Of a stretch of 35,130 bases of DNA, positions 1 through 5,134 are shown one piece after another; position 1 is the stretch's first letter, and every line of letters begins with the position of its first letter. The notes beneath the pieces are model-generated. The model had not been told where the DNA came from. It worked only from the letters and a program-made list of their open reading frames with translations, and did no database searches. Where the stretch lies: positions 1 to 35,130 of the forward strand of contig CANRGQ010000003.1 of NCBI GenBank assembly GCA_947630195.1, written 5' to 3'. The translations under genes and the position numbers were made by a program. This DNA is from an uncultured Bacilli bacterium. GTDB lineage: Bacteria; Bacillota_I; Bacilli_A; RF39; UBA660.

Positions 1-30
1 TAAATTTAATATAATATCTTCTTTATTCAT
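1..30 (-). CDS. 5' end of a gene running off the window (MNKEDIILNL...), first cargo gene of the putative second secA-associated cassette
   Basis: ATG at 30 with AGAAAGGA SD about 10 nt upstream; frame open to the window edge. Confidence 0.6.
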   Translation of the reverse strand, partial: MNKEDIILNL

Positions 31-106
31 TTTCTTTTGTTCCTTTCTACATACATTATATCATATATGTATGTTAAAAGGAACATACTTTTTGCTTTTT
101 TCCTAA

Positions 107-153
107 AAATTAAAAAATGTTAACATAATTTATTCGTTAACATTTTTTAATTT
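107..153. terminator. AT-rich 18-bp inverted repeat, probable bidirectional terminator
   Basis: AAATTAAAAAATGTTAAC (107-124) / GTTAACATTTTTTAATTT (136-153), 11-nt loop. Confidence 0.55.
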
Positions 154-181
154 CAAATGATTTTTTAGTTTTTTTAATTTT

Positions 182-203
182 TTTGCAAACAATTTGCAAA
201 CAA
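182..203. repeat. 11-bp tandem direct repeat TTTGCAAACAA x2, candidate integrase arm-type site of second cassette
   Basis: Copies at 182-192 and 193-203, 89 bp beyond the stop of the duplicated secA end; same position as the AACTTATCTAA x2 repeat relative to the real secA stop (83 bp). Confidence 0.6.
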
Positions 204-267
204 AATTCATTATTTTCCTGCTTCTTTAGTAATTTTTATATTTTGTATTTTGTATTTGATATAAATT

Positions 268-283
268 CCTTTATTTATAAGGG
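268..283. repeat. Imperfect palindrome CCTTTATTTATAAGGG downstream of duplicated secA end
   Basis: Counterpart of CCCTTATTTTATAAGGG at 2622-2638, similar spacing from the stop codon. Confidence 0.55.
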
Positions 284-291
284 ATTCAAGC

Positions 292-336
292 CTACTTTCC
301 ACAACAGTTTTTATACTTTTTACCACTCCCACAAGG
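292..336 (-). repeat. Duplicated, synonymously recoded 3' end of secA (PCGSGKKYKNCCGK*), displaced att-site copy
   Basis: Encodes exactly the last 14 aa + stop of SecA (2648-2692); 8 of 15 codons differ, all at third position; no start codon or upstream secA sequence. Confidence 0.9.
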
Positions 337-457
337 TGATTAATTAAAACAACCAAGTAATTTTTTCCTTTTAAATTGGGCTTTTTTATCTAAACATTTT
401 AATATATTATGTTTAAATTGCAATAAAGTAATGTTTATTTTCTTACAATAAAGTTTA

Positions 458-480
458 AACTTATCTAATAACTTATCTAA
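458..480. repeat. AACTTATCTAA x2 (458-468, 470-480), candidate arm-type site at distal end of islet
   Basis: Identical 11-mer also doubled at 2544-2565, same orientation. Confidence 0.7.
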
Positions 481-486
481 AAAATT

Positions 487-1794
487 CTAATTATTATGGT
501 TATTCCACTTTAGTTGTCTTTTTAATGCAACTTCAATATATTTCCATGTTTCTTCATTTGATAATCTAGCAAGAATAAATGGGTGCCTTGTATCTAAAAA
601 AATTTTTTTAAAATCTTCTATTGTATATTGATTCTTATCTAAAAATTCTAATACAAGACCTGAATGAATTTGGGATATATAATCATCCATTGTAAATTTT
701 CTAAAACTATCCCCTTCTTTATCTAATTCAACAACTTGAACATCTCTATAAACAATTTGAGTTAGCAAATCTAAAGCAATATCACTTTTATTCTCATAAT
801 TAGCTATCTCATACATCGTTACATATTGTTGAATTGCTAGTTGTAAGCATCTTATAGCATTAAAATTTTCTAATACTCTATCGGTTTTGTTTCTTTTAGA
901 GGCTATAATAAAAATCTTATATCCTGTGTTATCAAGATCTGAAGCTACTTTATTTGCAAATTGCCACATAATATCCCTAACACTAACACTTTTATATTTA
1001 ATTTTCTCAAAATCTGTCATATATTCGCTATATACAAATTCGTTCTTTTTCATTATTCTTTCAAAAAATAATATTTCTCTTATTTTTTTATCATAGTCTT
1101 CAAAATCTTTTAATGTTTTGTCACTTAATTCTAATTTTTCTTTACTGTACATATCAGTTCTAATATAGATCTTGTTATTACAATTTGGACATTTTCTATT
1201 TACTTTTATTTGTTTGTCTAAAATACAACCACAACTTATGCAAGCATTATTACTTAAGCTTTCTTTTGCTTCCTTTAAATTGAATGCACAATTTCTAATA
1301 TAATCATAATATTCTTCATCAAAATATTTTAATTTTCTTTGACTATTGTTGTTTGAAATGTCTATTATTTTAGTTTTATTCCCCTTTTGATTTTCATCAT
1401 TATTAATTTTACTATTTATATCGTTAAGGATAATATTTAGTTGTGGATCGCAACAATGACCATATGAATCTTTAATATTTTGTTTTAATTCTTGTATTTT
1501 TTTCTCTCTGTCATCTTTATCTTCAATCCTATTAATTTCTTTTAATTTTTTATAATATGTATCATTTAATTGCTCATAAATTCTTTTTTGAAAAGTTTCA
1601 AAACTATCAACATGTAATTTCGAATATTTTTTTTCTAGCTCTTTTAATTGTCTGAAATATGACATCATAATTTTGTCAGATAAAACATATTCTTTAAAGG
1701 TGTCGTATCCTTTTACATTTTTTTCGTTCAATTCATTTATCTGCTTCATTAAAGATTTATATTTTTTCAAATATATTGAATCAAATAATCCCAT
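487..1794 (-). CDS. Hypothetical 435-aa protein with coiled-coil-like N-terminus and a C4 zinc ribbon
   Basis: ORF with AGGTG SD; CISC-x13-CPNC motif (CISCGCILDKQIKVNRKCPNC). Confidence 0.8.
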   Translation of the reverse strand: MGLFDSIYLKKYKSLMKQINELNEKNVKGYDTFKEYVLSDKIMMSYFRQLKELEKKYSKLHVDSFETFQKRIYEQLNDTYYKKLKEINRIEDKDDREKKIQELKQNIKDSYGHCCDPQLNIILNDINSKINNDENQKGNKTKIIDISNNNSQRKLKYFDEEYYDYIRNCAFNLKEAKESLSNNACISCGCILDKQIKVNRKCPNCNNKIYIRTDMYSKEKLELSDKTLKDFEDYDKKIREILFFERIMKKNEFVYSEYMTDFEKIKYKSVSVRDIMWQFANKVASDLDNTGYKIFIIASKRNKTDRVLENFNAIRCLQLAIQQYVTMYEIANYENKSDIALDLLTQIVYRDVQVVELDKEGDSFRKFTMDDYISQIHSGLVLEFLDKNQYTIEDFKKIFLDTRHPFILARLSNEETWKYIEVALKRQLKWNNHNN

Positions 1795-1833
1795 TAAATC
1801 ACCTACTTTTGTTATTTATTATATCATAAATAC

Positions 1834-2454
1834 TTAAAAATCTATCATACAGTTTCCAACAATCCAAAGTAATTTGCTATCATAAATTTTATTAAAGTCT
1901 TCAAAGTTAAATCTTGTAATTCTATTATAATACGGATAATTAATCTTATCTTCATCTGAAATGCAATTTTTTATATCTTTTATGAGCTTGGCAAATAATA
2001 TATTTATCTGTTTTAGCAAATTAATTAATTCATTTGCTTCAATTTTAATAGTTTCATGTTTAATCTTAAAATTAAACTCAAAATAACAATATTTTCCACT
2101 TGCAGAAAAAGTTCTTTTTATTTCATGCATTTTATGTTCATATTTATTTCTAATCTTTCTTATTTTATCTAATATTTCATAATTGTTTTCTAGTATTTTA
2201 TTATAATCAAAATATAGATAAGAAATATTTTCTCTATATTCTAATAGTCCATCTGAATTTATACATTTTAAAACACCATTAGTGATTGAATAAGGAACTA
2301 ATCTAGGAATATCTTGTAGTATATCCAATATCTCCTTATGACTAGATTCATACTTAATAGATACATTAGTGCCACATAACTTTATCAATTTTTGATTTAA
2401 TATATATAATGTTTCAATATATCCAGATAAAGAATTAGCAATTTCAATATTCAT
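1834..2454 (-). CDS. Hypothetical 206-aa helical protein with HEPN-type R-x4-H motif (putative RNase/defence effector)
   Basis: AAGGAGG SD; KIRKIRNKYEH contains R-N-x3-H (2134-2151); family call from the motif only. Confidence 0.6.
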   Translation of the reverse strand: MNIEIANSLSGYIETLYILNQKLIKLCGTNVSIKYESSHKEILDILQDIPRLVPYSITNGVLKCINSDGLLEYRENISYLYFDYNKILENNYEILDKIRKIRNKYEHKMHEIKRTFSASGKYCYFEFNFKIKHETIKIEANELINLLKQINILFAKLIKDIKNCISDEDKINYPYYNRITRFNFEDFNKIYDSKLLWIVGNCMIDF

Positions 2455-2543
2455 ATTATACCTCCTTTAGCTTCACTATTATTGAACAATATCTTTTTTT
2501 CATAATAAATTTAATATTTTTTCATATGCTAATAAAATTTAAA

Positions 2544-2565
2544 AACTTATCTAAAACTTATCTAA
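2544..2565. repeat. AACTTATCTAA x2 (2544-2554, 2555-2565), candidate arm-type site at secA-proximal end
   Basis: Perfect tandem 11-mer matching 458-480. Confidence 0.7.
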
Positions 2566-2621
2566 TCGCTATTTTCTATTAAAAAATACCTAAAAATTGG
2601 AACAAGAAAAAACTCGTTTTT

Positions 2622-2638
2622 CCCTTATTTTATAAGGG
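2622..2638. repeat. Palindrome CCCTTA-TTTTA-TAAGGG after secA stop (terminator or recombination accessory site)
   Basis: 6-bp inverted repeat; homologous copy at 268-283. Confidence 0.55.
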
Positions 2639-2647
2639 TTTGCGAGT

Positions 2648-5134
2648 TTATTTGCCACAACAATTTTTATATTTCTTACCACTACCACATGGACATGGAT
2701 CATTTCTTCCTACTTTAGTAACTCTTTTGGGAGCACTTTTAACTGTTTCTTTACCGTCATTAGCAACTCCTTTTAAAGTTTGTTTTCTTTCACTATTTTG
2801 ACGAACTTCGGCTTTAAGTAAGAATTGCGCCGTTAAATCTTCAATCTTAACAAGAAGACTATCAAACATTTCAAATCCTTCCATCGTATAGGCTTGGATT
2901 GGATTTGTTTGACCATATCCTCTTAGAGAAATTCCTTCTTTTAAATGTTCCATGGCACTCATATGATCTACCCAGTTAGAATCAATTATTCTTAAAGATA
3001 TCGCTTTTTCAAATTCATTCATAACTGGCGTATCAATCATTTTCTTTTCATAATCAGAAATAATTAATTTATAAATTTTTTCTCTTAATTCTTCATCATT
3101 TAAATCTTTAACATCTTTTAATTTTAAAGCATCATTTTTAAGATAGTTAGCATTAACATATTCAACTAATTCTTTTTTGTCATCTTCACTAATACTACCA
3201 TCTTTAGAATAATGACTTTCAATTAAATTAGTAATGGTATTTTTAAATACCCCAAGAATATTTTCGTGAATACTATCACTATCTAAGATTTCATTTCTTC
3301 TATTATAAATAATTTCTCTTTGTTCATTTAAAACATTATCATAATCAAGTAAAGTCTTACGAATATCGTAGTTATTACCTTCAACCTTCTTTTGAGCGGT
3401 TTCAATACTCTTAGTTAAGGCTTTAGAACGAATAGCTTGCATTTCTTCAATACCAAGTCTTGCGAGCATATTTCTTATACTTTCCGTACCAAATCTTCGC
3501 ATTAAGTCATCTTCAAAAGAAACAAAGAATTGACTTTTACCTGGATCTCCTTGACGACCGGCACGACCTCTTAATTGGTTATCAATACGACGGGACTCAT
3601 GTCTTTCCGTACCAATTACACAAAGGCCTCCAAGTTCCTTAACGCCTTCACCTAACTTAATATCGGTACCACGACCAGCCATATTGGTTGCTAAGGTAAT
3701 CGCCCCTTTTTCTCCGGCTTTCGCAATAATTTCCGCTTCTCTTTCATGGTTTTTGGCATTTAAGACTTCATGTTTTAATCCCGCTTTTTTAAGTAAACTA
3801 CTTAAATATTCATTGGCCTCAACAGAGATAGTACCAATCAAAATTGGTTCACCAGTGGCATGTATTTCTTTAACATAATTAATAATCGCATTATATTTAC
3901 CTTTACTAGTAGCGTATACTAAATCAGCATAATCTTCTCTAATAACTTCTTTATTTGTTGGTATTTCAATAACATACATGTTATAGATATTTCTAAATTC
4001 TTCTTCTTCGGTTTTAGCAGTACCTGTCATACCAGCCAATTTTTTATACATTCTAAATAAGTTTTGGAACGTAATCGTCGCCATTGTTTTAGTTTCTTCA
4101 TTAATAGTTACATTTTCTTTTGCTTCAATGGCTTGATGTAAGCCATCACTAAATTGTCGCCCAAACATTAAACGACCGGTAAATTGGTCAACGATAATAA
4201 CTGCATCATCTTGCACTACATAATCAACATCTTTTTTAAACCCATAATTGGCTTTTAAAGCTTGATTTAAATGGTGTACTAAAGCCGTATTATCTAAATC
4301 ATATAGATTTTTTAAATTGAAATAACTTTCAATTTTTTTACTACCTTCGGCAGTTAAACTAACATTTTTAGTTTTAACATCAATATCATAATCTTCTTCC
4401 TCTTTTAATCTTTTAACGGCTCTATCAGCTTCCACATAAAGATTTTTAGAGTTCATTCTACCCCCACTTATAATAAGCGGAGTTCTCGCTTCATCAATTA
4501 AAATAGAGTCAACTTCATCGATAATACAGAAGTTAAGTGGTCTTTGGACTCTATCTTCACTTCTTACGACCATATTATCTCTTAAGTAGTCAAAACCAAT
4601 TTCATTATTAGTGGAATATAAAATATCACAATTATAAGCATCTTGTTTTTCTTTTGGGCTCATTTCTCTTAAGTTGATACCTACAGTTACCCCTAGTAAA
4701 TCATAAACCGGTCTCATCCATTCCGCATTACGAGTTGATAAGTATTCATTGGTTGTAACAACATGAACACCTTTACCTGTTAAAGCATTAACATATGCAG
4801 GCAAGATAGTGGTTAAGGTTTTACCTTCACCAGTTTTCATCTCGGCTATATTACCATAATGGATAGCAAGTCCTCCTAGAAGTTGAACATAGAACGCTTT
4901 CTCTCCAATCGTTCTATAAGCGGCTTCTCTTGCTAAAGCAAATGCTTCCACTAAGATATCATCTAAAGTTTCACCTTTAGCTAATCTTTCTTTAAATTCT
5001 TCTGTTTTCTTTTTAAAATCGGCATCCTTTAATTTTTGCATATCTTCATCTAAAGCCACAATTTTATCGGCAATGCCTTCAAACCTTTTTAATTCTTTAT
5101 ACTCACTATTTAATAGTCTTTTTAATAGTCCCAT
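2648..5134 (-). CDS. secA: Preprotein translocase subunit SecA
   Basis: MKTGEGKT, DEVDSILIDEARTPLIISG, TNMAGRGTDI, RRIDNQLRGRAGRQGDPG, C-terminal SEC-C GRNDPCPCGSGKKYKNCCG. Confidence 0.99.
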   Translation of the reverse strand: MGLLKRLLNSEYKELKRFEGIADKIVALDEDMQKLKDADFKKKTEEFKERLAKGETLDDILVEAFALAREAAYRTIGEKAFYVQLLGGLAIHYGNIAEMKTGEGKTLTTILPAYVNALTGKGVHVVTTNEYLSTRNAEWMRPVYDLLGVTVGINLREMSPKEKQDAYNCDILYSTNNEIGFDYLRDNMVVRSEDRVQRPLNFCIIDEVDSILIDEARTPLIISGGRMNSKNLYVEADRAVKRLKEEEDYDIDVKTKNVSLTAEGSKKIESYFNLKNLYDLDNTALVHHLNQALKANYGFKKDVDYVVQDDAVIIVDQFTGRLMFGRQFSDGLHQAIEAKENVTINEETKTMATITFQNLFRMYKKLAGMTGTAKTEEEEFRNIYNMYVIEIPTNKEVIREDYADLVYATSKGKYNAIINYVKEIHATGEPILIGTISVEANEYLSSLLKKAGLKHEVLNAKNHEREAEIIAKAGEKGAITLATNMAGRGTDIKLGEGVKELGGLCVIGTERHESRRIDNQLRGRAGRQGDPGKSQFFVSFEDDLMRRFGTESIRNMLARLGIEEMQAIRSKALTKSIETAQKKVEGNNYDIRKTLLDYDNVLNEQREIIYNRRNEILDSDSIHENILGVFKNTITNLIESHYSKDGSISEDDKKELVEYVNANYLKNDALKLKDVKDLNDEELREKIYKLIISDYEKKMIDTPVMNEFEKAISLRIIDSNWVDHMSAMEHLKEGISLRGYGQTNPIQAYTMEGFEMFDSLLVKIEDLTAQFLLKAEVRQNSERKQTLKGVANDGKETVKSAPKRVTKVGRNDPCPCGSGKKYKNCCGK

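Follow-up and report, generated by a model that had tools for sequence, protein, structure and literature searches.

In an uncultured Bacilli bacterium of the gut (GTDB lineage Bacillota_I; Bacilli_A; RF39; UBA660) the 3' end of secA, from the TGTGG that encodes Cys-Gly to the stop codon, is very likely a landing site for mobile DNA. The window that we have analyzed is a stretch of 35,130 nucleotides (assembly GCA_947630195.1, contig CANRGQ010000003.1, positions 1 to 35,130), and the element in question, here called cassette 1, lies directly downstream of secA. We propose a mechanism that, in our judgement, has a high probability of accounting for cassette 1: attachment at the secA tail, a recoded tail, arm repeats and head-to-tail stacking. 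The TGTGG-to-stop stretch would serve as the attachment site of tyrosine integrases, and an element would enter as a circle whose own site holds the remaining SecA codons in recoded form, together with a terminator and, on both sides, short arm-type repeats that putatively bind the integrase. Integration would keep secA intact, now ending in element DNA, and would push the original tail downstream as an orphan; repeated entry would then build head-to-tail arrays. Cassette 1 would be one such element, with 2356 bp between secA and the orphan tail, two genes, complete TTAGATAAG-class arms and no integrase, and a second unit of the TTGTTTGCAAA class would begin after the orphan tail, truncated at the contig end.

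The genome to which the window belongs (G000) is an 81% complete metagenome bin of 1.17 Mb in 87 contigs with 27% G+C. Window position 1 is the start of its contig, and therefore no extension to the left is possible. SecA (828 aa, 2648..5134, minus strand) is matched by the Pfam families SecA_DEAD, SecA_PP_bind, P-loop_SecA, SecA_SW and SEC-C; it is complete in length, and the SEC-C zinc motif at its C-terminus is intact. A reading of the letters alone (the sequence-only reading) had stated that the end of secA recurs 2356 bp downstream and encodes the same peptide, and both repeat search and translation bear this out. The repeat pair 293-336 / 2649-2692 comprises 44 nt at 84% identity with a spacing of 2356, and the minus-strand reading of either tail (14 codons plus stop; orphan, 292..336, secA-attached, 2648-2692) is PCGSGKKYKNCCGK followed by a stop. 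Eight of the 15 codons differ, TAG versus TAA included, and all eight differences are synonymous third-base changes (P = 3.0e-5 for all eight landing on the 15 third positions of 45), in agreement with the suggestion that the copy has been selected to encode the SecA tail. Upstream of the orphan copy the frame reads TCA and, before that, TAA: with an in-frame stop two codons away, the orphan copy is part of no gene. A pattern search of the 1.17-Mb G000 assembly finds no third SEC-C-type motif besides these two.

Comparison with relatives identifies the 2356-bp unit as an insertion. In G046, a genome of the same genus, the secA tail and the DNA downstream match the orphan side of G000 at 93.8% (137/146), as against 72.1% for the secA-attached side, and the similarity runs past the stop: the 107 nt that follow the orphan tail are 94% identical to the DNA after secA in G046, whose contig ends after these matched 107 nt. 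Since secA of G046 is joined directly to orphan-side DNA, the unit between the two tails in G000 has been inserted, the orphan is the displaced original end of secA, and the tail now attached to secA was supplied by the inserted unit. The empty site predicted for relatives is hereby found. The element is flanked by direct repeats of the 3' end of its target (292-336 and 2648-2692), and its DNA restores the reading frame of secA. In G010, secA is separated from an orphan tail by a one-gene NUDIX cassette; the orphan tail is letter-identical to the secA tail of G001, where the site is unoccupied, and the secA-attached tail of G010 diverges from the G001 tail starting one base past TGTGG (empty-site comparison: 87.8% for the orphan side vs 78.0% for the secA-attached side). 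This places the exchange at or beside TGTGG, as had been proposed. In the window this pentamer stands at 2685..2689 (minus strand) at the secA-proximal junction, the inferred crossover region, and at 329-333 (minus strand) in the orphan tail. The remaining 12-13 codons must come from the element, and this explains how the tail can be recoded yet identical in protein. What did not survive is an imperfect inverted repeat (6 of 9 matching) at the distal junction: it is weak, and no consistent inverted repeat is present across the G000-type junctions compared.

The arms of cassette 1 are built around a short repeat. The left arm (2455..2647, minus strand) holds a terminator hairpin at approximately 2610-2649 with a U-run (-14 kcal/mol, z -4.15) and TTAGATAAGT twice at 2545-2565; the right arm (337..486, minus strand) holds TTAGATAAGT twice at 459-480, a degenerate third copy at 386-394, and the junction. 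Expressed as ACTTATCTAA, the motif is located at 459, 471, 2545 and 2556, that is, paired near either end of the unit, and relative to the tails the repeats lie at +82 and +92 past the stop and at -152 and -139 ahead of the junction. Beyond the orphan tail a different 11-mer takes over, TTTGCAAACAA at 182 and 193, which has no other copy in the G000 assembly; the tandem 11-bp repeats that had been described inside the cassette ends and beyond the orphan tail are all in place in the assembly. The idea that both stops are followed by the same layout stands for the repeats and only in part for the hairpins, which are strong after secA and weak after the orphan tail (-4.9 kcal/mol, z -1.0). The hairpin after secA was detected by folding alone: a simple terminator scan missed it and found no terminator, and promoter-like sites were fewer than in shuffled sequences. 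A search of positions 1-3000 against Rfam returned only a sub-threshold miRNA row, on a hairpin.

Arms of this kind recur in relatives at fixed positions. A typical unit has a short motif one to three times at 50-100 nt past the stop and again, usually as a pair with a spacing of 11-13 nt, 123-165 nt ahead of the next junction; arm-type repeats on both arms at fixed distances from the core are a feature of lambda-type attP sites. The motifs fall into classes (TTGTCCAC, TTGTCTAC, TTGTGTGCA, TGTTCGCA, TTGTTTGCA, TTGTTCCCA and others) that covary with the N-terminus of the adjacent integrase. In fixed windows, the left and right arms of one unit share an 8-mer in 18 of 26 cases, compared to 121 of 642 arm pairs drawn across loci, which upholds the view that the repeats are cassette-specific in both arms. 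The TTGTTTGCAAA pair of the second unit in the window occurs in both arms of units in G048_C3 and L147 and also upstream of integrases with several N-terminal types. The number of arm repeats varies between units: on contig C41 of G747, five TTAGATAAG copies follow one another every 11 nt.

The region downstream of secA is variable throughout the genus. Among 23 same-genus genomes with a secA match, SecA is 85-99% identical and the genes that follow differ from genome to genome, as anticipated; in G020, for example, SecA is 99% identical, other genes lie downstream, and there is no orphan tail within 8 kb. In 12 of the 23 the contig ends at most 2.3 kb past secA, which is expected with strain differences or repeats. 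With a degenerate tail pattern, 9 of 42 genomes of the genus prove to have two or three tails that share a contig and a strand. In a class sample of 401 genomes, close tandem tails are present in 10 of the 50 from this family (G000 included) and in none of the 351 from other families, in which the only two same-contig tail pairs are 85 and 235 kb apart. Many genomes thus have the further tail copies and matching repeats that the sequence-only reading had suggested looking for. An identical 36-nt tail recurs in four genera of the family and in one genome that belongs to a different family, which fits a tail that travels with the element. Eleven of 61 orphan tails have a damaged motif, as compared with 1 of 77 secA-attached tails, a contrast that, the related genomes not being independent, is a tendency and no formal test; displaced tails would accordingly tend to decay. 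One orphan tail (L178, on G771 C7) has an internal stop.

Dedicated tyrosine integrases are found at the secA tail in relatives. The most widely surveyed, type 2, is a protein of 420-441 aa with the Pfam domains Arm-DNA-bind_4, Phage_int_SAM_3 and Phage_integrase, encoded directly 3' of the tail in the same direction as secA. For the best 80 of 194 relatives, on contigs from one genome per species, a tail lies 209-338 nt upstream of the integrase in 77 loci; 60 of these tails terminate open frames longer than 60 codons (800-930 in loci of sufficient reach), 10 are at or near the start of the locus and 7 are orphans. Of the three loci lacking a tail, two do not extend far enough for one to be visible. 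By title, the records are gut metagenome bins of a Bacilli, Tenericutes, Erysipelotrichaceae or Clostridia bacterium, together with Clostridium sp. CAG:914. In type 1, which shares these domains, the gene is interrupted at a run of eight A, with the protein continued in the -1 frame in 4 of 4 copies from 3 genomes, and G041 carries two tandem type-1 units of approximately 4 kb each after secA. The third kind is a phage-type integrase of 387 aa, 24-27% identical to type 2 and convergent with secA, that adjoins cI-like (HTH plus peptidase S24) and Cro-like genes. Within the family, 129 of 401 genomes have it, as do two IMG/VR records, of which one is classed as a provirus; the integrases of L189 and L184 are only 53% identical.

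The split of the type-1 gene deserves a separate remark. The loci (L051 on G041 C18, with two copies, L035 on G018 C40 and L158 on G378 C1) represent two genera and have TTA AAA AAA in frame, consistent with programmed -1 frameshifting at a slippery heptamer, or with a tract subject to phase variation; the first open reading frame (ORF) alone would be the arm-binding part. We found no report of frameshifted tyrosine integrases in the open-access full texts searched.

Taking all fetched loci together, we delimited 42 complete tail-to-tail units, counting as an integrase any match of at least 140 aa. Five units contain an integrase, two contain a remnant, and 35 have no integrase similarity. The latter measure 220-7318 bp, and 23 of them hold exactly one ORF of at least 100 aa; ORFs of this size are oriented with secA at a ratio of 52:1. 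Four one-gene cassettes, with SDR, NUDIX, methyltransferase and GNAT cargo, have a common left arm of approximately 200 nt and a right arm of approximately 175 nt. Other cargo comprises RhuM, APH/choline kinase, peptidase S51, ORF6N with Fic/DOC, and SMODS with SLATT_4, and three units of 220-265 bp have no ORF of at least 100 aa. Two of the ORF-less units (L043 on G021 C9, 264 bp, and L066 on G043 C1, 265 bp) consist of arms only, like empty cassettes. The integrase remnants are a 66-aa N-terminal piece in the RhuM unit of G008 and pieces in G021. In G008 (L032, contig C3), the RhuM gene, a common neighbour of secA in the genus, is flanked by the second and third tails and followed by the 66-aa remnant, so that what seems to be a native neighbour is an old, decayed element. 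The proposal that integrase-less cassettes, each with its own SecA tail, stack at secA is therefore sustained for the stacking; the system as a whole is not integrase-less, in that several autonomous elements, a prophage among them, use the site.

Cassette 1 itself has no integrase similarity in 337-2647 or nearby, and no integrase remnant; units with their own integrase are found in relatives. With flanking attachment sites and no recombination or transfer genes, it resembles a cis-mobilizable element (CIME) in these two respects. Its arm class is widespread: the TTAGATAAG pair occurs in 49 of 401 genomes of the family and 44 of 214 genera (0 for a reversed control), typically as a pair of spacing 11 after a tail and, 0.7-8.9 kb on, a pair of spacing 12 before the next tail. 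No integrase is present in the TTAGATAAG-class units of the 15 loci fetched, and in the 80 loci surveyed no TTAGATAAG arm lies upstream of a type-1 or type-2 integrase. In L184/L185 (provirus records that include a cI/Cro-type module), L188 and L189, the pair does separate the tail from the convergent 387-aa integrase, and the left arm of cassette 1 is colinear and approximately 80% identical with that integrase's arm in L184, L188 and L189, in the order stop, hairpin, U-run and repeat pair. The same left arm follows secA in G055 and the gene for a 334-aa SEC-C protein in G001. The right arm agrees with that of the integrase-bearing element of L117 (CAG:914) at 27 of 27 nt, with 81% identity over 115 nt, and this type of right arm ('KKLxGCFNILP' reading) surrounds other cargo in 8 loci.

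The 334-aa protein of G001 (L062, contig C14, minus strand) is not SecA, yet ends in a full CPCGSGKKYKNCCGK tail that is followed by the cassette 1-type left arm; in G677 a homologue is ordinary cassette cargo. The G001 gene may be a secondary attachment site or a cargo gene fused to the site.

Two observations suggest that such cassettes move. The NUDIX cassette occupies the first place behind secA in G010 and the second place in G004, with 91.9% identity over 716 nt; in G004, another cassette has entered between secA and the NUDIX cassette. Secondly, a 13.3-kb contig from a rabbit-gut run of a different study (X6) holds window positions 292-2733 with 38 differences and 1 gap, and both of its ends are then unlike the window, which puts the same cassette between other flanks. 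We infer that cassette 1 moves, or has moved, by means of the integrase of another element, and from the arm comparison the prophage lineage with the phage-type integrase is the best candidate supplier of the enzyme. An alternative route would be co-excision with a neighbouring element; integrase-bearing neighbours of such units exist in L117, G474, L091, L098 and L100.

Several results weigh against this account. Among the contigs of four runs, none joins 337 to 2692 as a circle would and none skips this interval as an excised site would, with the proviso that contigs cannot show rare forms; stretches of the window that are uncovered in some runs carry no weight as evidence. No kind of secA-associated integrase, the phage type included, is present in the G000 assembly, which is 81% complete. 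At E <= 1e-10, 26 of 48 TTAGATAAG genomes have no match to the type-2 integrase, and one of these genomes, in 3 contigs, has a completeness of 96%. Searching the contigs of the TTAGATAAG prophages with the tail pattern did not recover their far end. Element 2 of L117 carries unlike repeats in its two arms, the left motif differing from the right. The covariation of motif and integrase N-terminus is no independent proof of binding, as both are inherited together on one element, and since the loci were picked by tail, integrase or motif, the proportions among units are not population frequencies.

Two further observations on recombination are recorded here for completeness. A joint of 482 to 2553 in run X8 was rejected as a repeat artefact: one of its sides is 22 letters long and is the repeat itself. 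Weak integrase matches in G000 are limited to an Xer-like gene and a cluster on the short contig C17 (710-3120), where three tyrosine recombinase genes stand in a row, unrelated to the secA site.

The strongest competitor, which we nevertheless regard as unlikely, is that integrase-less units are immobile relics: only autonomous elements would integrate, and the integrase would later be deleted. The remnants in 2 of 42 units (the RhuM unit of G008 and G021) are what this predicts and indicate that some cassettes may indeed be relics. The mismatched arms of L117 element 2 would be expected after a deletion between neighbours, many cassette-bearing genomes have no matching integrase, and no excision product was seen. 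However, 35 of the 42 units show no trace of an integrase, arms are conserved around unrelated single genes, the same cassette is found in different array positions and between different flanks, and the TTAGATAAG class extends over 44 of 214 genera with varied cargo.

That the units moved by homologous recombination or gene conversion following DNA uptake, with secA and the conserved tails as flanks and no site-specific recombinase, is most improbable. In its favour, tails are conserved in many organisms of the samples, with depth spikes at both tails, and close relatives differ in whole blocks after secA; yet homologous exchange creates no second copy of the tail, the repeats are only some 45 nt long and 84% alike, dedicated integrases occupy the site in 77 of 80 loci, and arm repeats keep fixed distances from the junction. 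We give practically no credence to the notion that nothing was inserted and that 292-336 is what remains of a separate gene for a protein with a SEC-C tail. Other proteins do end in SEC-C tails, such as the 334-aa protein of G001, but the orphan copy has its in-frame stop two codons upstream, its junction lies at the TGTGG where other genomes have theirs, and homology continues past the stop into the post-secA DNA of G046 (94% over 107 nt), so that the decayed gene which the sequence-only reading had named as its own possible undoing is not there. Equally negligible is a chimera in the assembly of the metagenome bin, joined at the repeated tail. The bin is fragmented (87 contigs) and tails are common to many organisms in the samples; against this, both junctions are bridged within single contigs from other runs (292-2733 in the 13.3-kb contig of X6), pieces from X1, possibly the source sample, cover 283-870 and 2158-2759, and the same architecture recurs in dozens of other assemblies. 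Site-specific insertion at the secA tail thus remains the account that we prefer.

Cassette 1 carries two genes. Cargo gene 1 (1834..2454, minus strand) encodes a protein of 206 aa, possibly of HEPN type: a language-model search gave a weak lead to HEPN_LA2681 (0.89). Its translation shows an RNKYEH (Rx4H) motif. Cargo gene 2 (487..1794, minus strand) encodes 435 aa with zinc-ribbon-like cysteine pairs; it has 15 unnamed homologues in a large protein set, the window's own protein included, and one real relative, at 26% identity, in 401 genomes of the family. Neither protein has a family at threshold in Pfam, PADLOC or PHROGs, and SspC, TetR and PNPase appeared in weak rows under the cut-off and were rejected. 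To judge from these features, the pair may be a toxin or defence pair. The second unit begins with a left arm (31..291, minus strand) comprising the weak hairpin, TTGTTTGCAAA twice at 182-203 and hairpins at 107-153 and 38-85. The latter two, which separate the TTGTTTGCAAA pair from the next gene, are inverted repeats, one perfect (18 bp, 11-nt loop) and one imperfect (19 nt). Past the orphan tail only 290 nt of the contig remain, and of the next cargo gene (1..30, minus strand) only the start can be read (MNKEDIILNL...), the rest being truncated by the contig start.

Open-access full text yielded no secA 3'-end attachment site, in keeping with the sequence-only reading, which knew of no such array. 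We regard the system as a known process, site-specific accretion, in a new form with integron-like features. PMC5357655 (citing Pavlovic 2004 and Bellanger 2011) describes tandem accretion of the integrative and conjugative elements ICESt1 and ICESt3, CIMEs, and streptococcal tandems of integrative and mobilizable elements (IMEs) at the 3' ends of rpsI, rpmG and rplL. The likeness lies in tyrosine integrases acting at the 3' end of a conserved protein gene, head-to-tail stacking via the resident att site, and units without recombination genes that are thought to be mobile with a neighbour. The differences are the target, here the secA tail, and the units: mostly single-gene cassettes of approximately 1 kb with full-length conserved arms, as opposed to decayed islands, with cargo co-oriented 52:1 and class-specific arm repeats. 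The ssrA-targeted islands of Dehalococcoides (PMC3146451) likewise use the 3' end of a single-copy essential gene and are larger; ssrA being an RNA gene, no recoded protein tail is needed there, unlike in the secA units. Elements of the staphylococcal cassette chromosome (SCC) integrate at rlmH (orfX), according to PMC13739063. Shared with the secA units are the 3' end of a conserved gene, arrays, and some units without a recombinase of their own. The SCC repeats carry the end of rlmH, and multi-element arrays with recombinase-less pseudo-SCC make up composite islands; the recombinases are serine enzymes (Ccr) acting at short sites that are not known to have arm-type repeats, whereas tyrosine integrases with an arm-binding domain operate at the secA tail.

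Integrons are single-site arrays of mostly single-gene, co-oriented cassettes with attC sites, and new cassettes enter proximally; clusters of attC sites that have no integrase are a related case. The secA arrays resemble them in being co-oriented and mostly single-gene (one ORF in 23 of 35; 52:1), in that new cassettes can enter proximally, and in cargo consisting of small modifying enzymes, toxin-like genes and defence genes. They differ in having no integron-type integrase by the site: the upstream neighbours of secA are unrelated ORFs, and the integrases at the site have Arm-DNA-bind_4 and SAM_3 domains. Integron cassettes have attC palindromes, while the cassettes described here have approximately 375 nt of lambda-like direct-repeat arms and a coding tail, and because a terminator follows secA, expression from a common upstream promoter is unlikely, unlike in integrons. 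The attP site of phage lambda has a core at the crossover, direct arm-type repeats at fixed distances and a heterobivalent integrase. The short crossover core, two or three direct repeats per arm and the N-terminal Arm-DNA-bind_4 domain of the integrases (Pfam) are its counterparts here; unlike attP, the site is found on integrase-less units, and part of it codes for the restored end of an essential protein.

A broader reading, which we offer tentatively and rate somewhat below even chances, is that lambda-type integrases have given rise independently to an integron-like platform for gene capture, in which single-gene, two-armed cassettes, each with a recoded SecA C-terminus and a class-specific arm code, stack co-oriented behind secA throughout the family and are parasitic on integrases borrowed from prophages and other elements.

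The tail of an essential gene would join the known landing sites of mobile DNA, and as this site is conserved by protein function it would offer a wide host range. Small cassettes that carry a full lambda-like site and no enzyme would stand between decayed islands and integron cassettes, and the matched integrase N-termini and arm motifs constitute a natural series on the evolution of arm recognition. Acetyltransferases, a phosphotransferase, NUDIX enzymes, Fic/DOC and SMODS-SLATT genes are among the cargo, and the secA site may therefore be a hotspot for accessory and defence genes in these reduced genomes of approximately 1 Mb.

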